A stretch of DNA of 64,000 nucleotides from Syntrophales bacterium (GTDB taxonomy: Bacteria > Desulfobacterota > Syntrophia > Syntrophales > UBA2210): NCBI GenBank assembly GCA_963666365.2, contig CAXXNF010000001.1:672001-736000 (forward strand), read 5' to 3'. Under the pieces are notes generated by a model, which worked only from the letters and a program-made list of their open reading frames with translations, had not been told where the DNA came from and made no database searches. Positions 3,281-20,800 of the stretch are shown here, piece after piece; the first letter of the stretch is position 1, and each line of letters begins with the position of its first letter. A program made the position numbers and the translations under genes.

Positions 3281-4525
3281 ATGGACAACAATCAATCCAA
3301 TGAAAACTGGCTCGCTACTCGGCAGCTGGAACCTCGATGGTCTATTGGTCTTTCGGGCATCGTCAATTTGATCGTGCTTATCATCGGCGTGTGTGCCATA
3401 TGGTGGATCTTTTTCTCAGAGGCAGGATTGTGTAAACTTTATACACCTCTTCTGGGTTTTTCTCTGGTTATATGGACACTGCTCATACTGCTCTGGCAGA
3501 CGGAACTGTTTGATTATTGGCCGTTCTCACGCACCTACCTGAAGAATACAAATCCCCTGGCCAAGGGAGCGACGATGACCGCACTGATGATTGTCATTTA
3601 CCTCGTCCTTGTTATCGGATGTGTATTTCTGATATTGGGAAAACTGGGCATCACCTATTTCAACTGGAACAGTCTGATGGCCTATGGCGAGCTGGGACAG
3701 GACGCCCTGTCCACCAGGGAAACAGCCTCCTGGGCAATGCTTTCACTCTCGGTTCCGTTCTTTCTTTTCAGCGTCTGGTTCATGTTCGGCATCGGAAGGG
3801 ACCTTTTCCCCGAGCTGAAACAGCCGAAACTCGGAATTGCCATGTGGGCGATTATAGCCGTATTCGGCATCTACTTTTTCTTCATCTTCTTTCACCCCCA
3901 TCTCGGCTCCATGTTCTATCCGAAGCAGGTCTATACGGCGATCCCGCCCTGGTGGGAAAGCATCGCCCACACAAACAGCGCCGAATACAGTCTGGGCATT
4001 CTTTTCTGCACCGTCGTAGCAACCTTTCTCGCCTTCCATCTCTGGGACGGCTGGCCCTTCCTCTACGTAAAAAAACAACCCTGGCGATTTATCATTTTTG
4101 CCGTAATCAGTCTTGTGCTCGGCTATATCCTGTTCCGCATTCAGCTCTTCGTGTTCGACTACTTATGGGATGAAGCCTATGTGGGCGGCCAGAACGATGC
4201 CAATTTCGGGTGGCGCTACGGTCACACCGTGACAATGGCGAATTTTATCCTTGTAATTGCCCTGATTCAGAACATATACTTCGGGCAGGCCTACGAAAAA
4301 TTGAATGGAATCGTACGGTCCGTCATCAAGACCGTCGTTGCCATCGTGATAGGTCTTCTTTTCGCATGGGCCTATTACGCATGGGGACCGACGCTTCTTG
4401 GCGTATGCGAGGGCGTGTCCCATCCATCGGAAAATGCCGCCGCCTTTTTGATCATGGTCATTAACCTGATTATGATACATGATTACTTTATGGACGGATG
4501 GCCGGGCTATCGACTGAAAAAATAA
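3281..4525 (+). CDS. Polytopic membrane protein, putative transporter
   Basis: About 10-11 hydrophobic segments; repeated (D/G)xWP motifs; no family confidently recognised. Confidence 0.7.
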   Translation: MDNNQSNENWLATRQLEPRWSIGLSGIVNLIVLIIGVCAIWWIFFSEAGLCKLYTPLLGFSLVIWTLLILLWQTELFDYWPFSRTYLKNTNPLAKGATMTALMIVIYLVLVIGCVFLILGKLGITYFNWNSLMAYGELGQDALSTRETASWAMLSLSVPFFLFSVWFMFGIGRDLFPELKQPKLGIAMWAIIAVFGIYFFFIFFHPHLGSMFYPKQVYTAIPPWWESIAHTNSAEYSLGILFCTVVATFLAFHLWDGWPFLYVKKQPWRFIIFAVISLVLGYILFRIQLFVFDYLWDEAYVGGQNDANFGWRYGHTVTMANFILVIALIQNIYFGQAYEKLNGIVRSVIKTVVAIVIGLLFAWAYYAWGPTLLGVCEGVSHPSENAAAFLIMVINLIMIHDYFMDGWPGYRLKK

Positions 4526-4542
4526 CCGAAGAGAAGAGAAGT

Positions 4543-5526
4543 ATGACCGTAACAGAGCACACCGATCCTGTCGCCGCCGCTGAATCGCTTATGCTTGAAC
4601 TGTTCCAGCATGTGTTTCAGAATGATGCAGCGCGGCGCCATTTCGGTTTTTCTCAGATATCTCAGGTGGTTGATGCGGATGGGCTGCCGCAGTGGTATCT
4701 CTGGTTTTCAGATAAGAGGGGCGCCTACTCCCTGACAATTGTCGAAGGGTGCACGTTGTCCGACAGTTTTGACGCGGCGGCCCACGGTTCAGGCGCCCCT
4801 TTGGTAGAAAGCAGAATCCTTCTCCGTTACTTTCCGGCCATCGAAGAGGACGACTTCGATGCACTGTCCTGTACCGAGCAGCTCTTCAGAATGAGCCCCA
4901 ACTGCGACGCAACCGGCACGCCCTCCTTCGAAGGAGGCGGCGCCATGCATCCAAGTTTCTTTGTCGCCGGACATATGGACATCATCGTCGATTCCTCGAA
5001 AAGGGATGTCGCGTTTTTTTGTGCCGCACCCGACAGATGGCGCGATTATCGTACCGACGGCCTGATTATGACTGATACAACAGGCACACCCCAGCAGGTG
5101 CTCTCGCCCGGAGACATTGACCGAGATTTTCCGGGATGGATGCTGACGTCCTTCTTTTTTGACAAAATAATCTCGGCATTCTGCTGTATGACCGCAGGAG
5201 CGCCCCGCATTGCGGGCGCTGCGATGAAGCGTTCCCGTCACTATGAGATCGACGGGGCGAACCACGTCACCGTCGTCGACGACGACACCATTATGGAACG
5301 GATTTTGGGCGCAGCGTTTTTCGACGCCGACGATGAAGAGACTGTACGAAAGAAGGCGGCATCTTTTACGGAAAGACTCAATTCGAGGGACTACGGACTG
5401 ATCGGCATATGGGAACGGCCCGACGATATACCTGCAGGATGGTGTAATCCGGCATGGTGGACAATCAGAGACAGACATTTTCATGCCGATTCGGACCGCC
5501 TGTGCTCCTGCTATCATGATCATTAG
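4543..5526 (+). CDS. Hypothetical protein with C-terminal CSCYHDH
   Basis: Long ORF co-oriented within the operon; no motif recognised. Confidence 0.65.
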   Translation: MTVTEHTDPVAAAESLMLELFQHVFQNDAARRHFGFSQISQVVDADGLPQWYLWFSDKRGAYSLTIVEGCTLSDSFDAAAHGSGAPLVESRILLRYFPAIEEDDFDALSCTEQLFRMSPNCDATGTPSFEGGGAMHPSFFVAGHMDIIVDSSKRDVAFFCAAPDRWRDYRTDGLIMTDTTGTPQQVLSPGDIDRDFPGWMLTSFFFDKIISAFCCMTAGAPRIAGAAMKRSRHYEIDGANHVTVVDDDTIMERILGAAFFDADDEETVRKKAASFTERLNSRDYGLIGIWERPDDIPAGWCNPAWWTIRDRHFHADSDRLCSCYHDH

Positions 5527-5553
5527 AGGGAAGTGAAAGGACGGCGCGCATCC

Positions 5554-5826
5554 ATGGTCGACAAATCACGTCGAAGCTTTTTTAACGATTATTTTCTGAA
5601 AACCGCAGTCAAATGCATTTCCGAAGGCCGTGAAGCCTATGAAAAGACGAAAAACGATCTGGACTACTTTGATTCTTTCGAATCGGCCTATCCTCTCATA
5701 TCGGAAAGCTATTCTTTTCTTGAGGACGAAGCACAGCGACTTGGAATCGACGTTACGGGCATGACAAAACTAGAGATTGTCAAAGAAATTTACCGAAAAG
5801 ACAATAAACGTTCCTCGCGAACCTAA
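5554..5826 (+). CDS. Small hypothetical protein
   Basis: Follows the previous gene; SRRSFF motif but no hydrophobic signal region. Confidence 0.55.
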   Translation: MVDKSRRSFFNDYFLKTAVKCISEGREAYEKTKNDLDYFDSFESAYPLISESYSFLEDEAQRLGIDVTGMTKLEIVKEIYRKDNKRSSRT

Positions 5827-5980: not shown

Positions 5981-6019
5981 GGGGAAATTTTATCTTTTCA
6001 TTCCATATGACCGGTGCGA

Positions 6020-7453
6020 TCATGACGATGACAATCGCCGGGTCAGCAATTCCCGGATCACTTTCGGATTGGCTTTTCCGCCGGAGGTCTGCATGATCTG
6101 ACCGATCAAAAAACCCAGGGCTTTTCCCTGGCCGCTTTTGTAATCGGCCACCGCCGCCGCCTGCGCCGCAAACACCTGATCAATCAGCGATTCGAGCGCG
6201 CCCGCGTCGGACACCTGACCCAGGCCTTTGACTTTCACAATGTCCCGGGGAGCATCACCGGAATCAAACATGCACGACAGCACATCGCGGGCCGCGTTGG
6301 CGTTGATCTCGTCTTTTGCCAGCATTTCCAGAAGTGCGGCCAGTCTTTCCGGCGTCACGGGCGTATGGGAAAGATCCTGGCGACGTTCACGCAGGGCGGG
6401 CAAAAGCTGGGTGGTCAGCCAGTGCATGGCTGCTCTGATCTGGGCGCCCGCGCGAATCAATTCTTCAAAATAGACGGCCGTTTCCGGATCAGTGCTCAGA
6501 TAGGTCGCCTCGTCGGTTGAAAGGCCATACTGGTTGACAAACCGTTCAGCGCGCACTGCGGGCATTTCCGGCAGACGGGCGCGCAGTACCGCAATTTCTT
6601 CGGGTGAAAGCTCAATGACCGGCACAGAGGGATCGGGAACACAGGGGCCCTCAAACTTCTGCCGCATGGGCAGCGTGACTTTCTTATCCGGATCCCACAA
6701 CCGGGTGTGCAGCACCACGGATTCGCCGGCCCGCACGGCCGCGCTCTGACGGCTGATTTCGTAAGAAATTGCATCCCCCACGTGTCGGACGGAATTCATA
6801 TTCTTCACTTCCACCTTGGTGTTCATACGGCCGTCGCCTTTGGGACGGATGGAGATGTTCGCATCGGCGCGCATCGTGCCGTTTTCCATACTGCATTCCG
6901 ATGATCCCACATAGCGCACCTGCGTACGCAGGGCCTTGAGAAACTCCATTGCATGGTGGGGCGTCCGGAAATCCGGCTCGGTGACGATTTCCACGAGCGG
7001 TGCACCGGCACGATTGAAATCCACCAGACTGATCGGCGTTCGTCCTTCCATTTCATGCACCAGTTTGGCGACGTCCTCCTCCATATGAATATGATGGATG
7101 CGCATCCTTTTGGGCGAGCCGTCTTCATCGGCAATGTCAACCCAGCCACCGCGGGCCAGCGGCAGATGCACCTGTGAAAGCTGATATCCCTTGGGCAGGT
7201 CCGGATAGTAGTAAACCTTTTGATCAAAGGCGCTTTTCGGCTGAAGTTCGGCATTGAGGCCCAGGCATAAAAGCGCCGCCTTTTCGAGCGCGGCCCCGCT
7301 CAAACGAGGCGCGGCGCCGGGATGCCACAGACAGACCGGACAGGTGTTAATGTTCGGGTCATCGCCGGGATTATTGGGACAATCGCAAAAGAGCTTTGTG
7401 GCACAGTTGAGTTCGACATGAATTTCCAATCCAATAACCGCTTCAAATTCCAT
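6020..7453 (-). CDS. gatB: Asp-tRNA(Asn)/Glu-tRNA(Gln) amidotransferase subunit B, divergent
   Basis: VIGLEIHVEL, YYPDLPKGYQ, HMEED, DFNRAGAPLVEIVTEPD, EVKNMNS; C-terminal Yqey-like GKANPK. Confidence 0.93.
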   Translation of the reverse strand: MEFEAVIGLEIHVELNCATKLFCDCPNNPGDDPNINTCPVCLWHPGAAPRLSGAALEKAALLCLGLNAELQPKSAFDQKVYYYPDLPKGYQLSQVHLPLARGGWVDIADEDGSPKRMRIHHIHMEEDVAKLVHEMEGRTPISLVDFNRAGAPLVEIVTEPDFRTPHHAMEFLKALRTQVRYVGSSECSMENGTMRADANISIRPKGDGRMNTKVEVKNMNSVRHVGDAISYEISRQSAAVRAGESVVLHTRLWDPDKKVTLPMRQKFEGPCVPDPSVPVIELSPEEIAVLRARLPEMPAVRAERFVNQYGLSTDEATYLSTDPETAVYFEELIRAGAQIRAAMHWLTTQLLPALRERRQDLSHTPVTPERLAALLEMLAKDEINANAARDVLSCMFDSGDAPRDIVKVKGLGQVSDAGALESLIDQVFAAQAAAVADYKSGQGKALGFLIGQIMQTSGGKANPKVIRELLTRRLSSS

Positions 7454-7455
7454 CA

Positions 7456-8655
7456 CTATTTACCTCCCCTGCGCTGCTGATAAAGATAGTCTCCCAGGGC
7501 AATCAGCCGCGCGTCCGCCTGCAACGCACCCACAATCTGCAGACCCGGCCGGTCGGGAGCTGAGGCCGGCGCCGTCAAAGCCGGCCAGCCTGCGACGTTG
7601 GCATGCACCGTGTGGATACACTGTTCGTAAAGGTGGCCCAATGCTTCCGATGTATCAATCAAGGCTGTGTTTTGCACCGGAAAAATCAGTGCGTCGGCCT
7701 GCCTTTCCAGACGTCGGGTATCCTTCACCAGGCGTGCACGGATGCGGCAGGCCTTTTCGTAGGCATCGTAACGCTCAAACTGAAAATAGGCACCCTGCAT
7801 CAGGTAACTTTTTAAAAGGGTTCCAAAAGACGCGCCGCGGCATTGCAGATACATATCGTTCCAGTTTTTGGCGCCCGGTACGCGCTTTCCGAAGCGCACG
7901 GAATCATACCGTCCGGCCGCGGATGAGGCCTCAACTGAACCGACAATCTTATGCACAACCAGACACAGGGCATAGTCCGGCCAGGAAAAAGATTTGACGA
8001 TGAACCCCAACTGACCGAGTCCATCCAATTCCCCGTCGAAGGCGCTCCGTTCGGACGCGGAGAGTGCAGACAGGGATTCTTCGATGACGCCCAGTGTCAT
8101 TTTTTTCGAGTCAAGGTCCTTCAATGGAATATCGGAGAAATCCAGATCGGGCTGAGAAAAATCCCGTTCGTCAACCCCGGCGACGCCTTTGACCACTGCA
8201 CGGATATCACCGGGCGTCTTTGCCAGAATCCCACAGACTTCCATCGATGGAATCAAGCCGGCAATCCCCAGACGGGGAATCAGGCCCCAGGACGGTTTGA
8301 ACCCCCAAAGCCCGGCACGCTCTGCGGCCAGGCGCGCCTCTCCTGCCAGATCCAGCATGATCTCCGCGTCCGCCTCTTTTTGTTCAACGGCCCTGCCGGC
8401 GCCGCTGCTTCCATTGATGCCGAAGCCGAATTCACTTGTGTGCGTCAAGCCCGATATCACCGCGCCGTTCCTTCTGAGTCGCTCTACGACAGCGGCGTCT
8501 TCCAGGGCCTTAAAACCGTTCAGCGCCTCTGAACCCGCCTCCATGGGCCAGCCTGCAACGGCGATGTTCGATTGAAGGGCAACTGCCATGCCGGCAAGCG
8601 GACCGCCGGCGCCTTCAGATACGTTCGGATTGCGATAGAAAAAACTTTTTTTCAT
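7456..8655 (-). CDS. gatA: GatA-like amidase-family protein with degenerate catalytic triad
   Basis: GPLAG, SEFGFG, GFKPSWG, EASSAAGRYDSVRFG; lies between aspS-gatC and gatB; catalytic K to Q and nucleophilic S to E. Confidence 0.8.
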   Translation of the reverse strand: MKKSFFYRNPNVSEGAGGPLAGMAVALQSNIAVAGWPMEAGSEALNGFKALEDAAVVERLRRNGAVISGLTHTSEFGFGINGSSGAGRAVEQKEADAEIMLDLAGEARLAAERAGLWGFKPSWGLIPRLGIAGLIPSMEVCGILAKTPGDIRAVVKGVAGVDERDFSQPDLDFSDIPLKDLDSKKMTLGVIEESLSALSASERSAFDGELDGLGQLGFIVKSFSWPDYALCLVVHKIVGSVEASSAAGRYDSVRFGKRVPGAKNWNDMYLQCRGASFGTLLKSYLMQGAYFQFERYDAYEKACRIRARLVKDTRRLERQADALIFPVQNTALIDTSEALGHLYEQCIHTVHANVAGWPALTAPASAPDRPGLQIVGALQADARLIALGDYLYQQRRGGK

Positions 8656-8665
8656 AGATAATCCC

Positions 8666-10786
8666 TTATTCCAGAATACTGGCAACTTTAAAAAAATTGC
8701 CTTTGACCGCCGGGGCGTTCTGGAGCAGAACGCCTGTTTCAGCCATAACCGAGCGTTTTGCGGTCAGCCCGGGCCGCGTGCGGTGCGTCGCGGGCAACAC
8801 CGAACGGATCGGTTCATCGTTTCCCGCCCTGTCGCAGGCAACCTCCGCCAGCGACTGAGCCTGCGAGAGCACCGCTTCCAAAATCGCCCGCTCCTCGGTC
8901 GCGATACCGATGCGCGACACCCAGGACAGACGGTCCAGCATATTTTCTTTTTCCGTGGTTCCGGGCAGCACATCCTTGCCGCCCAAATTCAGAAGGCCCA
9001 GTTCGGCCAACTGTTCCCGTTCAACGACGGACGGCGCCCCGGTGAGCGGGCAACCGGCGGAACGGTTTTTCGGGAAGGCGATGACCTCGCGAATGGACTG
9101 CGTTTTGAGAATCATCGACACCACACGGTCCATGCCCAGCGCGAGGCCCCCGTGGGGCGGCGCACCATAATCAAAAGCCCTCAGGAAGAAACCGAATTTT
9201 TCCCGCATGTCCTTTTCGGTAAGCCCCAGTGCCGTGAATATTTTACGCTGGAGGTCGCGGTTGCTGATACGAATGCTTCCGCCGCCCAGTTCCTCTCCGT
9301 TCATCACCAGGTCGTAGGCGCGGGAACGCAGGCTGAGCAGTTCTTCCACATTTTTCGGATCGAAATCCGTCCGGTCCGGCGCCGTGAAGGGATGGTGGCT
9401 CGATGTAACGGCGCCCTCCTCGGCGGCTTCAAAAAGGGGAAATTCCGTGATCCAGACCGGACAAAAGCTGTCTTCGGGAATGAGGTTCAAACGATGCGCC
9501 AGGTGCAGGCGCAGCTGCCCCAACGCGGAGGTGACGGTTGTGTAGGAGGGATCGGCCACCATAATCAGCACATCGCCGTCTTCCACGTCAAAACGCTTCT
9601 TGAGCAGGACCAGTTCCGCTTCGCTGAAAAACCGGACAATATTGGATTCCAATTTTCCGCCTTCGGCCCGCATCCAGGTCATACCTTTGGCGCCGAAAGA
9701 CGGCGCAATCTCCTTGGCATACTCATTTTGCAGCACATTTTTGCTTAACTGTTCGGATCGGCCCCTGATGTTGATGCCCTTGATGCAACCGCCGCGCTTC
9801 AGTATCTGTTGGAAAATTGAATACTTAGTGTCGGTAAATACATCCGTGACGTCCACGAAACGGAGGCCGAATCGCAAATCGGGCCGGTCAGAACCGGTGG
9901 CGTCCATCGCATCGGCGTAGGTCATGCGCGGAAAAGGCCTGGGAAGATCGATGTCACCCAGCGTAAACATCTGAACCGTCAGCTCCTCGATCAGCTCATA
10001 GAGAAATTCCTCGTCGATAAAAGACGCTTCCAGATCGAGCTGTGTGAATTCCGGCTGACGGTTGGGACGCAAATCCTCGTCGCGGAAACAGCGGGCCAGT
10101 TGAAAATAACGCTCCAGGCCGCCGATCATCAGCAGTTGCTTGAACAGCTGCGGCGACTGGGGCAGGGCGTAGAAGCTTCCCGGATGCACACGGCTGGGTA
10201 CCAGATAGTCGCGGGCGCCTTCGGGGGTGCTCATCGTAAGCACGGGCGTTTCCACTTCCACAAAGCCCCGCTCATCGAGAAACCGGCGTACACACTGGAA
10301 AATCTTGTGCCGCAACCGCAGATTGTTTTGCATGACGGGGCGGCGGATATCGAGGTAGCGGTACTGCAAGCGCAGCTCTTCCGAAACCTGCTCCGTGCCT
10401 GACGTTTCGGCGCCCGCTACCATGGCCTTGTCGGATATGACAAAGGGCAGAGGATCGGAGTCGGCCAGCACGGTTACATTCTGTGCAATGACTTCAACAT
10501 CTCCGGTTTCGATATGGGGGTTTTCCGTCCCGGAACGCCGCCTTGTGACTTCGCCTTCCACGGTGACGCAATACTCCGCCCGCAGTGCCGAGGCCGCCTC
10601 GCATACATCCCCGGGGGCAATCTCCGGATTAAAGACAATCTGCACGATGCCGCTGCGATCACGCAGATGAATGAAGATAAGACCGCCGTGATCGCGGTAG
10701 GCATCCACCCATCCGCACAGTTGTACCTGTTGACCAATTTTTTCAGCCGAAATGGCGCCGCAAAAAATCCTCCCGGAAAAGCTCAT
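8666..10786 (-). CDS. aspS: Non-discriminating aspartyl-tRNA synthetase fused to a C-terminal GatC-like domain
   Basis: RDHGG, STPEGARDYLVPSR, CFRDED..RQPEFTQLD, GAPPHGGLALG; tail LSWVSRIG...NAPAVKGNFFKVASILE is GatC-like. Confidence 0.93.
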   Translation of the reverse strand: MSFSGRIFCGAISAEKIGQQVQLCGWVDAYRDHGGLIFIHLRDRSGIVQIVFNPEIAPGDVCEAASALRAEYCVTVEGEVTRRRSGTENPHIETGDVEVIAQNVTVLADSDPLPFVISDKAMVAGAETSGTEQVSEELRLQYRYLDIRRPVMQNNLRLRHKIFQCVRRFLDERGFVEVETPVLTMSTPEGARDYLVPSRVHPGSFYALPQSPQLFKQLLMIGGLERYFQLARCFRDEDLRPNRQPEFTQLDLEASFIDEEFLYELIEELTVQMFTLGDIDLPRPFPRMTYADAMDATGSDRPDLRFGLRFVDVTDVFTDTKYSIFQQILKRGGCIKGINIRGRSEQLSKNVLQNEYAKEIAPSFGAKGMTWMRAEGGKLESNIVRFFSEAELVLLKKRFDVEDGDVLIMVADPSYTTVTSALGQLRLHLAHRLNLIPEDSFCPVWITEFPLFEAAEEGAVTSSHHPFTAPDRTDFDPKNVEELLSLRSRAYDLVMNGEELGGGSIRISNRDLQRKIFTALGLTEKDMREKFGFFLRAFDYGAPPHGGLALGMDRVVSMILKTQSIREVIAFPKNRSAGCPLTGAPSVVEREQLAELGLLNLGGKDVLPGTTEKENMLDRLSWVSRIGIATEERAILEAVLSQAQSLAEVACDRAGNDEPIRSVLPATHRTRPGLTAKRSVMAETGVLLQNAPAVKGNFFKVASILE

Positions 10787-10953: not shown

Positions 10954-10982
10954 AGCATAATGCGCATGCCATCCATTGTCAA
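10954..10982 (-). promoter_or_regulatory. sigma70 promoter of the aspS-gatAB operon
   Basis: Minus strand TTGACA-17 nt-TATGCT. Confidence 0.65.
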
Positions 10983-11875: not shown

Positions 11876-14800
11876 ATGACGCGTACCATAATCAATGCAT
11901 TTTTCATTTCTGCAGTTTGCCTTTTTTGTCCGCTTTTTCTGACACAGAGTACCGCCCTTTCCTGCGCTGTCACTGCACAGTCTGTTCCTTACGGCGTCAA
12001 TTCAGCCGGCGAAACCACGACTGCCGATGCCTGTCTCGACAACTATCCCGGCCTGACCTTTTCTCAGGCGGATTTGTATATTCTGCGGCACCAGCTCGAC
12101 TCCCTCCGCTATAACTATGAAGCCTATCGATCAACCATGTTTCAGCATTTCGAAATGTTTCAAGGCGCCTCGCCTTACAGCAACAAAGTAAATCTGGAAA
12201 CCCTGGGACCGCTCTATTCCGAAGACTACAAAAAGATCCTTCAGTTCGCCTCCGGCAGCGGCAGTGATCCCTCCGCCGCCTCACTGATGGAAGAGGCCAA
12301 GGAAAAGATCAACATGGAGGAGATCGTCGCAACAGCGGGAAGCGAACTGTCGGAGAAACTGCTCGAAATGGCGGGGGTCTCCATCATCCTCATGCCGCTG
12401 GATAAATTCAAACAGTGCGCCCAGTTTCTGGCGACGGCGACACTCGACGGACTGAACGGCATGATGGACAACTTCTATACCGGTGCGGCCGAGCTGTACC
12501 TGTTTCAAGCCTGGGAAGATTCCCAGGGTGATGAAATATACAACCCCAACTACACGCTGGAAGAGAATGCCGATCAGACCGCCCGCGTGATCAACGGCAT
12601 GACGAACGCCATTAACCTGATCGAAACGGCCAACGGCCAGTCTTCTTTCAGTTACAGCGCGTCGGTAAGCGAAAACCAAGCGGCCTGGACGGCGCTGGAA
12701 ACGGCGCTGAACAACCAAAAAGGGCTTATTGCCACACTGGACAGCAAGGCACAGACCACGCGGGGAGAATACGGCCTCGGAAGATCAGTGGTGTGGCAGT
12801 GGACAAGCGAAGCCCTGCAAGCGGTCGATATGGATCCTTTGTCGGATGCGGGAGACGTCAACGGCGACGGCGTGACTGAAATGCTGGCCGATGCCATTCT
12901 GCTGGCCTGGAAGATGGAACTCGATTCGCTGCGCGGGACGATCGACCTGCAGCGCGAACTGATCGATGAGTACACCGTTCCGGAACTGGAACTTCTGTCA
13001 TTCATCGATCCGAATCCCGATTCGGAGATAGACCGATACCCCGTAAGCGATCACGGAAACCTTCCGGCATATACCCATGCACTACCGAACGCGCCGGACT
13101 GGACCGTCGGTCCCTCCGGTTGCGATTTCACCACCATACAGGCGGCCGTTGCCGCCGCTTCTCCCGGCGACGCGATCATGGTGTCGCCCAAAGAGAACAA
13201 TGCCTATTATCAGGAATCCGTCATCATTGATAAGGAAGGGGTGATCCTTTATGGAGATCCCGCGGCTCGCCCCTTTATCGGGACATCCGACGGAACGCCC
13301 CCTCTTCCGTTCGGAATCGAAATCGCCGCCGACAACGTGACGGTCTCCAATCTGATCATTCAACGGACCGTCCGGGGAATAATTGTGAAGGGCAACGGCG
13401 CCGCTGTCGTCAATAATCTCATTCAATGGACTATCTACGGCATTCTCGTCGAAGAGTGTCATGACGGCCTTTTTGCAGGGAATATCGTCGACGAGGCAGT
13501 GGGCCGGGCGATACGGCTAGAGCGCGGCGCCGGCAACACACTTTATTACAATTCATTCAATCTCAAATCGGACGTTGCTGGTACGGCCTGCGCCTACAGC
13601 AGCGGCGTCAATACCTGGGACGACGGCGTCGATACAGGCAACTTCTGGAGCGATTACGACGGATCGGGGATCTATCCCATTGCAGACGGACGAGAGAAAG
13701 ACGACCGTGTATATGGCGCTGCGGCCGTGACACCCGGCGCCACATTGACGGCAAAAACGCTTGTCAGGGGAGCAATGGGCGACGATACGATTGAAGTGGA
13801 TTTTTATTTCGGCAACCCGGACAACGGGGGAATTCTGCTTAATGCCTCGCCGGTCCTGGCCGAGATTCGGGGCAATTACGCCGTTGCCGTGTACGAGTGG
13901 GACACTGCAGGGTTTCTCGGCACACAGGATATTCACGTCCGCATACACGGTGCAGGCGACGGCGTTACGGAAAAAGTCAGAGTCTTTCCCTCCGGTCTAT
14001 GGCCGAGCTCGGCGGCCACTCTTTTCGTAACCGGGTTGCATCTGGAACCCGGGGACGACCTGACCCTTTTCAACGCTATACACTGGATCGATTCACCTTA
14101 CGAAAGTCCGGGAATTACGGTTCCGGACGGTGCATCCCTTTCCCTATCGGGTGTAATCTTTTCCGTACTGGAAAATCTCGCCGTTTCAGTTGCCGCCGAA
14201 GGAGCCTTCTTCTCCCACAATGACGTGAACTGGAATACGGATGTCGATCTCTTTCACAGAGGCGAACGCCTTCTGGAGGAAGGCTTTGCGCCGGTTGTCT
14301 CGAATACTTCCTTGAATCTGGAGCACAACGTTATCAATCTCAGGGGCTGCGGGAACATAGATTGGCAGGGCAGGGACTTTACCGGATATGAAATAACGCT
14401 TTCGAACCTCACCGACCTTAGAATGGAAAACGTGACGGCCGATGCCGTGACGATTACAGACTGCACTTTCGGCGCCTCCGCTCCCGGAACGATCACGAAC
14501 GCTCATATTCCGCTCATTACCCTGCGTAACAGCGATTCGTTCCATATCACCGACAGTGTCTTCGGCGGCAATGGGCGCATTGTCCTGGAACAGGGTATCG
14601 ATAATCTTCAAATCAGCGGAAATACCTTTACTGATATCGAGGGATACGCCATCAGTGGAACAGCCGTGACCGCCGGAAACCTTCTCGTGGAATCGAATAC
14701 CTTCGATAATTGTTTCGGCTGCTTCTCTCTGTCTCTGGCAAGCGACACGACCGGAATCAATTTCCAGGAAAACGACATCACCGGCCTTGCCACGGCGGGC

Positions 14801-17800
14801 TATGCCGGGGTCTATCTAAACGCCTCCACTCTTTTGAACAATAGGGACCTTACTATCACAGGCAACACCTTTGTCAACAGTAGTGCGCACACTGTCAAGG
14901 CAGTCCATCTCGTCAACCTGGACGGAGGGACAATCAAAAATAACACCTTCACCTATGTCGATTACGGGCTCTATCTTCAGGGGTGCCGCAACATCACCGC
15001 CACGGTGAACCGTTTTCTGGAAGGCAGCAACGGATACGACAGCTCAGGTTCAACGAACAACCGGTGGTATGAAAACCGTCTGGGCAACTACTGGAGCGGG
15101 TTTCGTTGCGAAACACCCAATGAGGCAAACCTTCAGGTATTCTCCTGCCCCTATGTCAATGGATTCGGGGTCAACGATCCCTATCCGCTCATCCGCGACA
15201 GGTTGATCGAATCGGTGGTTGCCGTGCCGACAACGGGAAGGACGGAAGAGACATCATCGGGGATATCATGGCCCAACCCGCGTTTTGAGATTCAGCACGA
15301 CGGAAACGTAGTGCTGGATCGCCTTACCGGCCTGATGTGGTGCGCTGAAGGAAACGCCATAGGCGATTTCTGTCCCGGGTTTGATACAGACGATGTTGAA
15401 GGGGACGGCAAAATCACATGGGCCAGGGCGCTCAATTTCATCAACTACGTGAACAGCGGCAACTGTGGCGAAATCTCGGCAGGGTATACCGACTGGCGCC
15501 TTCCTAACATGAACGAACTTGAGAGCCTATGGAATACATCATCTCTGACCATAAAGGATTTTCTGGATAACGCCGGTTTTTCCAATATGCAGTCAGGCAG
15601 ATACTGGTCTTCAACCACCCATTATCCGGATGGATTTGCCTATACTGTTGATTTTACGACAGGAGAAATTGTCATTGAATACTGGAATAACTGCACCTAT
15701 TCTCTAATGGTGCGAGGCGGCGCTGATGGCGGCACGGATCCCGCATATCCCGCAAATATCGCGCAAACCGGACAGATCACCAGTCACATGAACGGAGACG
15801 ACGGTGATCTGCAACGAGGGATTGCCTGGCCTTCCGACCGGTTTGTCGACAACGGCGATGGAACAGTAACGGATGTGCTTACCGGTCTGATGTGGTTTGC
15901 AGAAACCGGCAGGTCATACACCTGGCAGGAAATTCCGGCTGTCATGGAAGCGCTCAACAACGGCACATATCTATTTGACACCAACAGAGGGTACTCGGAC
16001 TGGCGGCTGCCCAGTGTCCAGGAGTTGCTCAGTCTCGATTGTTATTTCAATGTATATCCCGAAGGCTATCTGTATCCCAACGGCGGTATTCCCGATTCTG
16101 TCCTTTTGGATTATGTGTGGAGTGCCACGACCCGACCGGATGACACATCCAAAGCCTATGTCATGAATTTGGGGGACGGGCAGCTCATTTCCGAGAACAA
16201 ACTGGACCCGCACCTCGCATTCATACGATTCATACCCGTCCGCGGCGGCCTGTATCGTCCCGCCGCCGCCACGCGGCTACACATGACCCCCGAGGCACTT
16301 GACTTTGGGGCAGTGGCAATGCTGGGCAGCCAAACGGAACTGTTGGAAGTGCGCAATGACGGAATCAATTCTGCCGCGATTTTCTTAGTTTCACTGATCG
16401 GGGAGCATGCCGACAGCTTTTCCCTGCTCAGCGAGCCGATGCCTCACAGCCTGATTCCGGGAGGAGGAAGCGATACGATAGAAGTAGTGTTCAATCCGAC
16501 GAGCCCCGGTGAAAAACAGGCCCGTCTGATCATCTATTCAGACGATCCGATTACCCTCTGGGACGAGATCCCCCTGAGGGGAACATCGACAGAGCATACC
16601 GTCTCCATCGGGTTCCAGGGTAACGGCAGTGGAGTCATCGAGGCCCATTCCCACTATGACAATCAGACATACAGCTTCTCTGAAAGCGGCACGCTGCAAG
16701 TCGTACCCGGCACCGATGTAACCTTCACGGCAACCCCCGCCGCCGGGTCGCACTTTGACTGCTGGACGGGTCTTCCCGAGGACGTGTCACGCAGTAACCC
16801 CATAACCGTGCGTATCAATGCGGATACGACCGTAACCGCTACGTTTGCCCTGGATACGTTCACGGTGCGCGGGAGCGTCGCCACAGCCGGCGGCGCCATC
16901 AGTCCCTCGGGATCGGTGACGGTAGATTACGGACAGGACCAGGCCTTTACCTTTGCCGCCGATCCTCACTATTTCCTGTCAGACGTCCGTGTCGATGGGG
17001 CATCCGTTGGGACGCCGGACGCGTACACCTTCGAAAACATCAGCGGGGATCACAGCATTACCGCAGATTTTACGTTGATCCCCTACAGCGTCGCTGCAAG
17101 CGCCGGCAATGGCGGCGCCATATCTCCCTCGGGCACTCTGGAGATGAATGTTACCCAAGAGCAGATCTTTGCGATAACACCCGAACCAGGTTATGCCATC
17201 TCCGATCTGCTGGTCGATGGCGTGTCCCAGGGCGCCGTTTCCTCTTACACACTTTCAAACCCGGAAGAAAATCACACCATCGAGGCGGTCTTCGAGACAA
17301 TCGAGTATGCCGTTTCAATTACCCACAGCGGTTTAGGTACGATAGACCCGGCAGGACCTCTGACCATGACGGTGGAGGATACACAGACGCTTCTATTCAC
17401 CCCTGACGCATATTACTGGTATGTCCAGGATGTCCTTGTCAATGGTCAATCCCAGGGGGCAAGTGATGTCTACGAGATCGCAGGCGTAACTGAAAATCTG
17501 GATATTCAGGTGATATTCGAAACGGACTGGCACAGGTTTGAAGCAACGGCAGGAGAAGGGGGAACGGTCTTGCCTATCGGTGAATATTACGTCGCGCCCG
17601 GTGAAACTCGACGCGTTATTATTACCCCCGATGACGGCTATCTGATCGCCGATGTCGTGGTGGACGGCGTCTCTCTTGGGGTGATAGACCGCTATACTTT
17701 TACGAATGTGGACGCGGTCCACTCAATCGAGGCCTCCTTTGTCGCCCATGACCCGTTGCCCCTCTCCCTTCCCAGGACCGGCGCCGATATTTCCTGGTAT

Positions 17801-20800
17801 GAAGGTGACGACGGCGATCTACAGGAAGGCATCGAATGGCCTGATCCCCGATTTACCGATAACGGAGATGGAACCATTACCGATAATCTGACGGGTCTTA
17901 TCTGGCTTAAAGACAGCGCCGCACTGGGCGCGCACAGCTGGGAAAATGCCTTGGTTGCCATCGAAACGCTCAACACCTCCCCCCAGAGCATCGCTCCAAC
18001 CGGCTATGACGGAGATTATCCAGACTGGCGCATGCCCAATCAATTCGAGCTGCTCAGCCTCTTTGTCAACGCAGGGGAGGGGGACTTGACCGCATGGCTC
18101 GCACGCGCCGGATTTACCTGCGGTTCATCGATATGGTCGTCCACAACGGCACAAAGTTACTTTCTCCCTGCTTTTTATGTCGAATCGGGTACGTCCGGAT
18201 TCACGTACCTCACGGCAAACAAAACCGACGTCAAGGGAATACTTGCGGTACGGGGCACATCAACGGGCCCGTTTACGGTTCCCAAAACCGGTCAAACAAT
18301 ATCCTATGCGCCGGGAGACGATGGCGATCTGCAAAAAGGGGCAACCTGGCCTTCCCCCCGCTTTGTCGACAACGGAGACGGCACGGTCACGGATCAGCTT
18401 ACCAATCTGATGTGGCTGAAGACGGCCAACCCCTTAAAGTCATACAACACTCCTTCTTTGGGCGATTCCGACGGATGTGCCAACTGGCACAACTCGTTGC
18501 TTTTTATCAATAAACTTAACGATGGCGATTATTCCGAAAAAACGGACCTTTTCGACGACTGGCATCTTCCCAATGCCTGGGAGTTTTTAAGTCTCTACAA
18601 TCCCTCACAGAGCGTGCCGGTCTTTGCGGAGCGCCCCTTTACCGAAACCAGCGGTTCGACCGGAACCGTTCCACGAGACGACCTGTACTGGACGGGAACG
18701 ATCAGTCCGGTTGACGGCGATTTCGGTGGACGCGTGCTGACAAAAATCGACGGGAGCAATTACCAGCGAAGCTACTACGAATGGAATGAACTTTCAACCG
18801 CGGCCGCCGTGGCCTGGGTCGTGCGCGATGCATCGAAAGTGACCGTGCATACCTGCGTTTCAGGAAACGGCAGCGTTTCACCGTCGGGCGACATCAGGGT
18901 GGATATCGACGGGAACCAGACCTTTACCATTGCCGCCGACAGGGGCTACGAAATCGCCGATGTCATCGTTGACGGTGTGTCCGTCGGCGCGGTGAATTCC
19001 TACACCTTCGAAAACCTTACGGAACCGCACACATTGGAAGTGCAGTTCGCACCATTGACCTACACGATTACCACGGGCGTCACGGGAAACGGATCGATCC
19101 TGCCTGAGGGGAATCAGGCAGTGGAATACGGTCAGTCCCTGCGCCTCACCTTCACCCCGGATTACGGGTCGGTGGTTGCCGACGTGCTGGTGGACGGCCT
19201 TTCAGTTGGAAATTCTTCATATTATATATTCGACAGCGTAACCGAACACCACGACGTTGCCGTGGTGTTTGAAGAGATGTCCGGCCAGCGTGCCGAGGCG
19301 CCTGCCACGGGTCAAACAATTTCCTACGCCGCCGGGGACGATGGCGCGCATCAAAGCGGTGTTGTCTGGCCTGAACCACGGTTTGTCGATAACGGCGACG
19401 GCACGATTACGGATATGCTCACGGGCCTCATGTGGCTGAAGCACGCCAATCTGGGAACACTGGAAAGAGGTTGGTCCCATACGTGGAACGGCGCACTGGC
19501 TGAAGTGGCGGCCTTCAACAGTGATCCAGCATCTTTCGCCCGTGAAGAATACACGGCTGACTATACAGACTGGCGGCTTCCTAGCATTGTTGAACTCAGC
19601 AGCATTCTGCGCAACGCAGGCGTTTCGGATATTAAAACCTGGCTCGAGGATGCGGGATTTCTTTACGTGCCGTCCGGCAATTCCTGGACGTCTACCACGC
19701 TGACGCTCGGTCCGACCACCTATGCCTACTATGCCGCGATTTATTCCAATTCCGGACTTGATGAGGTCGGTTATCATGATGTGTCTCAGAGCTTCTACAC
19801 ATGGCCTGTCCGGGGGACCGCCAGCGGTGCGATCTACCTGCCGTCGACCGGGCAGACTGTAAGTTATGCCGACGGCGACGACGGGAACCTCAAAAAAGGG
19901 CTTGCCTGGCCCGAACCGCGCTTTATTGACAACGGCAACGGAACCATTACCGATGAGCTGACCGGCCTGATGTGGCTGAAAAACGCAGATCTCGCTTCAG
20001 GGGAAGTTGAATGGTCTTCGGCCCTGAACACCGTCGCCGGAATCAACAACGGCAGTATCAGCGGTGCCTGCGGCTACAGGGACTGGCGGCTTCCCACGCT
20101 CGCCGAACAGATGAGCCTGATAGACTGGTCTGCCGCATACCCGCCCTTGCCTGCAGGGCACCCCTTTGTGAATTTGCAACTGGCTGAGTATTGGACCTCC
20201 ACCACCGACGCAAGCTCCGACATTTCAGCATATATCGTTGATTCCCGTTTTGCCGAAATTCATAATTATCCCAAAACCGGTTCTTACTATTCAGACAATT
20301 ATGTCATGGCTGTTCGAAATACCTATTACACGATCACTTACAGTCCGCCGACGTTGACAAATCGGGATGTGACGGCCGCAATCACCTTCAGCGACGAAAC
20401 GTTGACCGTCACCAGCGAGGGCGGCGCCGCGCACGTATTCACCGAAAACGGTACATGGGACTTTACCTTCGAAGACGGGGAAAGCGCTACCGGTACGGTG
20501 ACGGCCACCGTCGACTGGATCGACAAAGCGCCGCCCACGGCGACCATTGCCTATTCAACCACCGATACGACAAACCAGGATGTCGTGGCAACGATCACAT
20601 TAAGCGACGGCTCGGTGACCAGCGAGGGCGGCGCCACACACACCTTCACAGAAAATGGTGACTGGACCTTTACGTTTGAAGACGATCTCGGTAACAGCGG
20701 CACAGCGTCAGCAACAGTGAACTGGATTGACAAGGCGCCGCCCACGGCGACCATCGCCTACTCAACCGTGTATTCCACCAATCAGGATGTGACAGCCACA

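Follow-up and report, generated by a model that had tools for sequence, protein, structure and literature searches.

What does a transfer RNA (tRNA)-dependent amidotransferase do once its GatA subunit, the glutaminase, has lost the residues of its active site? The question is raised by three genes on the minus strand of contig CAXXNF010000001.1 of a Syntrophales bacterium (assembly GCA_963666365.2), of which we analysed positions 672,001 to 736,000, a stretch of 64,000 nucleotides (nt) referred to below as the window. The genes lie head to tail in the order aspS2::gatC', gatA' and gatB', and encode an aspartyl-tRNA synthetase carrying a C-terminal GatC-like domain (AspRS2-GatC'), an amidase-fold look-alike of GatA, and a remodelled GatB. 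An original prediction, made from the DNA letters, had described such a trio at 6020..10786 of the window, and we confirm its three-gene observation at these coordinates. The cassette is a conserved, selected and horizontally spreading version of a tRNA-dependent amidotransferase that has dropped the chemistry of the glutaminase and kept the subunit.

A GatA subunit without glutaminase residues and its two partners

The amidase fold of GatA' is readily recognised, with the Pfam Amidase profile (PF01425) scoring 164.4 bits over a cut-off of 27, and the GatA equivalog profile TIGR00132 scores 212.7 bits and fails its cut-off of 481.1. HMMER alignments to the GatA chains of Aquifex, Thermus and Thermotoga place Gln28 at the catalytic Lys and Glu106 at the nucleophile Ser, with no intact triad found. 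The alignments begin at approximately residue 55 of GatA, the N-terminus being deleted, and contain a jump of ~20 residues that corresponds to the deleted cis-Ser loop, with the interface motif EASS..RYD retained. A catalytically dead and N-terminally shortened GatA that keeps this motif is what had been predicted, and the alignments agree on each point.

The loss is a property of the family. In 88 GatA' sequences, 78 from the subclade of the window and 10 from a more distant subclade, the Lys position is occupied by Gln (85 sequences), Gly (two) or Ser (one) and never by Lys, and the nucleophile position is Glu in all 88, with Lys and Ser found at these positions in all 31 canonical GatA sequences taken from the same genomes. 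Glu also occupies the nucleophile position in all seven still more distant representatives (39–51% identity). The ..KRRI.. and ..LsD.. stretches of canonical GatA, which we take to hold the glutamine-binding Arg and Asp, are likewise altered. With the Lys absent, the Ser replaced by Glu and the cis-Ser loop deleted, GatA' is predicted to be unable to act as a glutaminase.

An AlphaFold2 model of GatA', built on a shallow alignment of 17 sequences, has a mean predicted local distance difference test score of 76.6 and a predicted template modelling (TM) score of 0.83. Its ten best matches in the PDB are all GatA chains, with TM scores of 0.70–0.76, and the model thus suggests that GatA' keeps the fold of GatA. 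Residues 249–295 are both the most conserved stretch of the family and the least confident part of the model; the low confidence may mark an interface or may reflect only the shallow alignment.

Loss of the glutaminase residues is also seen elsewhere amongst GatA-like proteins. Seven proteins from other short GatA-like lineages (P0149, P0157, P0198, P0207, P0210, P0219 and P0263; 385–416 residues, with 23–28% identity to GatA') also lack the catalytic Lys, with most also lacking the nucleophile Ser, and the glutaminase site may therefore have been lost repeatedly.

GatB' matches GatB chains of known structure over its full length, passes the TIGR00133 cut-off (494.1 bits, cut-off 314.8) and contains the Pfam domains GatB_N and GatB_Yqey, sharing about 40% identity with the canonical GatB of the same genome. 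All 21 GatB' sequences compared have E11, H13, E126, E127, E156, T159, N200 and S202; mapped by motif, these residues fall in the stretches that contain the ATP and Mg2+ ligands named for GatB in PMC4027206. Their retention makes a kinase activity of GatB' plausible. Elsewhere the protein has been rebuilt, with QKVY found at the canonical RKNY site and FEGP-CVPDPSV, including a 3-residue gap, at the canonical ..DYRYFPEPD.. stretch. A comparison of 74 GatB' with 31 canonical GatB sequences lists 36 columns, with the fixed replacements including G44W, N53S, R79Q, N81V, R122H, Q249L, E250H, E268F, R271P, Y272C and F273V, together with loss of the three residues H-D-Y; R79Q, N81V, Q249L, E250H, the H-D-Y loss, R271P, Y272C and F273V are each fixed at 85–100% of the 74. 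The prediction of a remodelled GatB with intact ATP and metal motifs therefore holds. PMC2811023 describes a 3-10 turn of GatB that reads the U1-A72 pair of tRNA(Asn), and GatB' is free of gaps across this region when aligned with S. aureus GatB.

Residues 1–598 of AspRS2 align with bacterial AspRS and contain the tRNA_anti-codon (OB), GAD and tRNA-synt_2 (class II core) domains of Pfam, with scores above the cut-offs of both TIGR00459 (702.8 bits, cut-off 373.85) and NF001750 (764.9 bits, cut-off 443). Compared with 29 canonical AspRS sequences, AspRS2 retains the class II motifs and QSPQ, and differs by a 12-residue insertion in the hinge and by fixed substitutions, among them D242N within the motif 2 loop. 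It looks like a functional AspRS. The motifs RDHGG and RSGTENP both occur, and were put forward in the original prediction as hallmarks of a non-discriminating enzyme, which we treat as an assumption; the His of RDHGG is shared by the consensus built from the canonical AspRS sequences of these genomes.

The best family match of the complete protein, by far, is NCBIfam NF009460, which aligns end to end (residues 1–706 with model positions 18–723 of 723). The sole Pfam match of the C-terminal extension of ~106 residues is GatC (PF02686; 16.8 bits, E-value 0.0081). The same extension scores 18.3–34.8 bits in five relatives, with two of the six pieces reaching at least 23 bits (34.8 and 25.7), and is kept in 21 of 21 aligned relatives with a mean column identity of 74%. 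A TIGR00135 search of the window's genome (E-value ≤ 0.01) recovered the canonical gatC and not the fused domain. On sequence grounds the extension is probably a divergent GatC domain, in line with the predicted fusion of AspRS to a GatC-like domain.

Selection, copy number and spread of the cassette

All three genes are constrained. The ratio of nonsynonymous to synonymous substitution rates (dN/dS), determined over 29 close pairs, is 0.04–0.17 for the AspRS2 core, 0.05–0.14 for GatB' and 0.12–0.32 for GatA'. GatA' is thus more relaxed than its partners, yet clearly under purifying selection as judged from these ratios, and with values in this range it is not decaying. Conservation of the altered residues in orthologues, as opposed to their neutral decay, had been set as a check on the prediction, and is evident both in these ratios and in the invariant Glu and absent Lys of the family.

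The trio was thought to be a paralog of a housekeeping set, and the remainder of the window's genome (94% complete) contains that set. A canonical gatC-gatA-gatB (G000:C2:2039496-2042664) and a canonical aspS (C2:837272-839020) are both present, on a contig other than that of the cassette. These canonical copies pass their curated cut-offs, and the canonical GatA keeps its Lys, Ser and Ser. The genome encodes GlnRS and no AsnRS. Its single tRNA(Asn) begins its acceptor stem with the pair U1-A72, and its one tRNA(Asp) with G1-C72. ARAGORN also calls a 98-nt 'tRNA-His(atg)' outside the window, at G000:C2:790224-790321 on the minus strand, however its stem mismatches and long unpaired arm make this probably a false call, and we rejected it as a real tRNA.

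The same co-occurrence is found in other carriers of the cassette. Canonical GatB, GatA and AspRS are each present in all 30 cassette genomes examined across many phyla, and canonical GatA and canonical-length AspRS are each present in 34 of 36 additional cassette-bearing genomes from the order to which the window belongs, making 64 of 66 for both proteins. The two genomes without a canonical GatA are 77% and 90% complete, and the two without a canonical AspRS are 87% and 68% complete. The cassette is an accessory addition, never a replacement of the housekeeping set. Four genomes that carry the label Smithella or Deltaproteobacteria have their canonical aspS within about 0.3–3 kilobases (kb) of the cassette, on the same contig (G001:C8, locus L137; G002:C2, L142; G007:C3, L132; G009:C1, L129).

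Relatives of GatA', collected by a pattern scan in which each species was represented by a single genome, are encoded in 237 species genomes from many phyla, with locus analyses performed on the best 80 of the 237. These 80 include Smithella, Syntrophus, Desulfobacterales, Dehalococcoidia, Verrucomicrobia, Planctomycetes, Acidobacteria and Actinobacteria, amongst others. A cultured carrier of the cassette is Syntrophus buswellii DM-2 (locus L068). In 78 of 80 loci gatA' has the AspRS2 tail immediately upstream and GatB' immediately downstream, with the exceptions cut by contig ends, and the gene order is the same in 10 of 10 loci of the more distant subclade. Nothing else travels consistently with the trio, with the largest flanking gene family present in only 7 of the 80 loci. 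No tRNA gene for Asn or Asp was found beside the cassette in 60 loci, where ten ordinary tRNA genes occur in nine loci, and the window holds no dedicated tRNA. As judged from its surroundings, the cassette is self-sufficient, being linked to neither an Asn or Asp tRNA nor a conserved flanking family.

Within the window's order the distribution is patchy (37 of 151 genomes and 23 of 63 genera), and in the window's own family the cassette occurs in one of 11 other genomes. The GatB' and AspRS2 proteins of the cassette are ~77% identical whether the canonical GatB and AspRS of their hosts are 47% or 74% identical, and in close hosts the cassette is ~82% identical compared with 84–85% for housekeeping genes. 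In an unrooted GatB tree, constructed without a statistical test, the canonical copies follow taxonomy on long branches and the cassette copies form one shallow, phylum-mixing clade behind a long stem. The identity plateau, held irrespective of host divergence, argues for transfer between phyla, and on this sequence evidence the cassette is horizontally mobile. The G+C content of the window is 0.57 at 6001..10000, compared with 0.50 in the preceding 4 kb and 0.54 in the following 2 kb, which fits an acquired segment and proves nothing alone.

Possible functions of the cassette

The reading that we favour, at a little less than an even chance, is that the cassette encodes a hard-wired, glutamine-independent Asn-transamidosome fed by free ammonia. 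AspRS2 would charge tRNA(Asn) with aspartate, the fused GatC' would tether GatA' and GatB' to the synthetase, and GatB' would phosphorylate the tRNA-bound aspartate with ATP before amidating it to asparagine, giving Asn-tRNA(Asn). GatA' would serve as a structural pseudo-enzyme, and nitrogen would enter as free ammonia or ammonium and not from glutamine, these being the most likely donors because GatA' is predicted to be unable to hydrolyse glutamine. The Lys to Gln and Ser to Glu replacements would remove a positive charge and add a negative charge where ammonia is normally released, and the deleted N-terminus and cis-Ser loop are parts of GatA that presumably cover the glutaminase pocket.

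Among the closest known systems is the non-covalent Asn-transamidosome of non-discriminating AspRS, GatCAB and tRNA(Asn), solved for Thermus (3KFU) and Pseudomonas (4WJ3). This assembly is made of the same four protein modules, its chains are amongst the best structural or sequence matches of GatA' and GatB', and the U1-A72 pair of its tRNA(Asn) is shared by the tRNA(Asn) of the window's genome. In contrast to the non-covalent assembly, the cassette joins GatC covalently to AspRS, has a GatA' without glutaminase residues and a GatB' with some 30 fixed replacements, and is an extra copy beside a canonical GatCAB, each subunit of which has a homologue in the cassette. A surplus AspRS and a surplus amidotransferase likewise stand together, beside other routes, in the aspS-gatCAB operon of Clostridium acetobutylicum, the additional copies of which are mentioned in PMC4206432. 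The departure of GatA and GatC homologues from their original job also has a precedent in AtzE-AtzG (PDB 6C62, ranked 17th among the structural matches of the GatA' model), which derives from GatA and GatC and was recruited to s-triazine catabolism. AtzE is an active amidase that works without GatB, whereas the cassette has lost the amidase site and kept GatB.

Several observations weigh against an ammonia-fed Asn-transamidosome. About 30 positions that are invariant in the 31 canonical GatB sequences are replaced and fixed in GatB', and as a change of nitrogen source alone may not need such deep remodelling, the chemistry or substrate of GatB' could differ from the canonical. The invariant Glu of GatA' suggests a selected role beyond that of a pure scaffold. 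In the window's genome, which has no AsnRS, canonical AspRS and GatCAB already make Asn-tRNA(Asn), so that a second route is redundant, and AsnRS scores above its cut-off in 7 of the 30 cassette genomes from many phyla. Furthermore, the window's GatC' lies below the 23-bit cut-off of PF02686, and its fusion, at 1288.5 bits, below the curated equivalog cut-off of NF009460 (1379 bits). We hold this reading with caution because GatB' is so deeply remodelled and because the cassette would duplicate the canonical route.

These same features bring forward a less probable, and still appreciable, alternative in which the same tethered complex performs new chemistry, with the GatB' pocket accepting another nucleophile or acyl-tRNA and yielding a non-canonical product outside ordinary decoding. 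Coordinated, fixed replacement of invariant GatB residues beside intact ATP and Mg2+ motifs would be accounted for, as would a long stem followed by a shallow radiation, which is expected after a change of function, and a housekeeping set that the cassette never replaces. A complex of this kind is harder to reconcile with the retention of the aspartate and class II motifs by AspRS2, and with loci in which no tailoring, export or consumer gene and no dedicated tRNA is linked to the cassette. Somewhat less probable again is a proposal in which GatB' would have been rebuilt round its kinase core so that the activated, tRNA-bound aspartate is attacked by something other than ammonia from glutamine, and GatA', with its invariant Glu, would serve to capture or gate the attacker. 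The cassette would then yield a non-canonical aminoacyl-tRNA, or would encode the first tRNA amidotransferase dedicated to capturing ammonium.

A back-up or inhibitor-insensitive supply, in which AspRS2 is the selected activity, for example as an enzyme resistant to a natural inhibitor of AspRS or the amidotransferase, we consider unlikely. GatC', GatA' and GatB' would then mainly hold or hand over the tRNA, or act as a kinase or chaperone only. Resistance-type synthetase paralogs are horizontally spread extra copies, and an extra synthetase that spreads across phyla resembles them; additionally, AspRS2 is the most constrained of the three proteins, and its fixed D242N and hinge insertion could be read in this way. 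However, GatB' is equally constrained and keeps its catalytic motifs, the trio stays intact in all loci that are not cut by contig ends, and no producer or immunity genes lie nearby.

Slightly more doubtful is the supply of an amide donor in trans, with a separate glutaminase or asparaginase docking on GatA', or with the canonical GatA exchanging into the complex. A canonical GatA is at hand in nearly all cassette genomes, and the conserved but poorly modelled residues 249–295 of GatA' are interface-like. Against this, the cassette has no linked gene for a partner of this kind, the position of GatA is already filled by GatA', and the low confidence of the model may reflect only its shallow alignment. 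Finally, that the trio is what is left of a duplicated operon, now decaying and without function, as the lost catalytic residues of GatA' might imply, is very improbable given three intact frames, identical substitutions fixed in 88 of 88 sequences and presence in 237 species genomes, and the pseudogene reading was rejected on dN/dS values well below 1 for all three genes.

To our knowledge, all tRNA-dependent amidotransferases studied so far take nitrogen from an amide donor, which a glutaminase or asparaginase subunit splits and an ammonia tunnel carries onward. If the cassette runs on free ammonium, as in the ammonia-fed transamidosome that we favour, it would show how an amidotransferase is uncoupled from glutamine in nature, and might be an adaptation by which anaerobes save energy; if its product is not asparagine, it would represent a new tRNA-dependent amino-acid transformation. 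The fusion itself is already catalogued, with NF009460 (PRK12820) named 'bifunctional aspartyl-tRNA synthetase/aspartyl/glutamyl-tRNA amidotransferase subunit C' and sharing the architecture of AspRS2-GatC', a family name that is annotation alone. Full-text literature searches found no paper on an AspRS/GatC fusion or on a triad-less GatA partner, and in a survey from 2014 that covered 547 genera, Syntrophus aciditrophicus is entered with a single copy each of aspS and gatCAB (PMC4206432, Table S1). The co-occurrence with a canonical set, the identity plateau, the dN/dS values and the list of fixed GatB' replacements are new results. The cassette is directly testable, since a cultured carrier (S. 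buswellii DM-2) and established E. coli complementation assays (PMC4206432) both exist.

Gene boundaries, upstream sequences and neighbours

The positions of the genes and of the residues discussed above are collected in Table 1. As listed, the gatA' open reading frame (ORF) spans 7456..8685, with an alternative TTG start at 8685. The ATG at 8655 is the most likely start, because all 120 relatives among the matches listed are 375–405 residues long and align from there. The TAA of aspS2 is followed, after 10 nt, by the gatA' ATG, and the TAG of gatA' overlaps a GTG, with the gatB' ATG 2 nt further on and a GGAGG preceding, an arrangement that points to translational coupling of the three genes.

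Table 1. Features of the aspS2::gatC'-gatA'-gatB' cassette, in window coordinates
Feature	Position	Strand	Basis
aspS2::gatC' (AspRS2-GatC'), 706 aa	8666..10786	-	bacterial-type AspRS + C-terminal GatC-like domain
GatC-like domain inside the fusion, residues about 636-701	8684..8881	-	Pfam PF02686
gatA', 399 aa, amidase-fold GatA look-alike without glutaminase triad	7456..8655	-	Pfam Amidase + alignments
Gln28 codon, at the catalytic Lys position of GatA	8572..8574	-	PDB + family alignments
Glu106 codon, at the nucleophile Ser position of GatA	8338..8340	-	PDB + family alignments
gatB', 478 aa (477 aa from ATG at 7453), full-length remodelled GatB	6020..7456	-	TIGR00133 + PDB alignment
Promoter-like TTGACA-17-TATGCT, about 170 nt upstream of aspS2	10954..10982	-	consensus scan, 10/12 matches

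The promoter-like TTGACA-17-TATGCT is weak evidence of a promoter, since four such sites were found in the upstream region compared with 3.2 expected in shuffled sequence. An Rfam scan upstream of the window's operon (E-value ≤ 1) gave no match and no T-box, and a scan of the whole window at gathering scores likewise gave no match.

Upstream sequences of 300 nt from 64 cassette loci revealed one or two AT-rich palindromic boxes of the type ACAAATTTGT in 25 loci (L018, L021, L022, L025, L026, L028-L032, L034, L037, L042, L046, L052, L053, L055, L059, L065-L067, L071, L074, L078 and L097), with no box of this type in the window's own upstream region. The boxes lie at -62 to -16, mostly -62 to -39, about 40–110 nt upstream of aspS2, and are preceded in most of these loci by a conserved promoter-like CTTGAAAC-N17-TACGCT. 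They could represent an operator or a 5' hairpin. A sigma-54 promoter was considered for the conserved upstream box of the relatives and rejected, as the -12 GC was unmatched by inspection. A short ribosome-binding stretch, AGAAAGGA, is common to cassette loci across phyla.

The genes that flank the cassette in the window are unrelated to it. Two ORFs adjoin it on the plus strand, at 4498..5526 (342 residues) and 5533..5826 (97 residues), neither of which has a Pfam match (E-value ≤ 0.001) or recurs next to the cassette at any of the 80 related loci. On its other side, a plus-strand ORF of 3855 residues at 11876..23443 contains six Lcl C-terminal domains, NosD/beta-helix repeats and InlB-type B-repeats, with a weak dockerin match at its C-terminal end, and probably encodes a giant surface protein.

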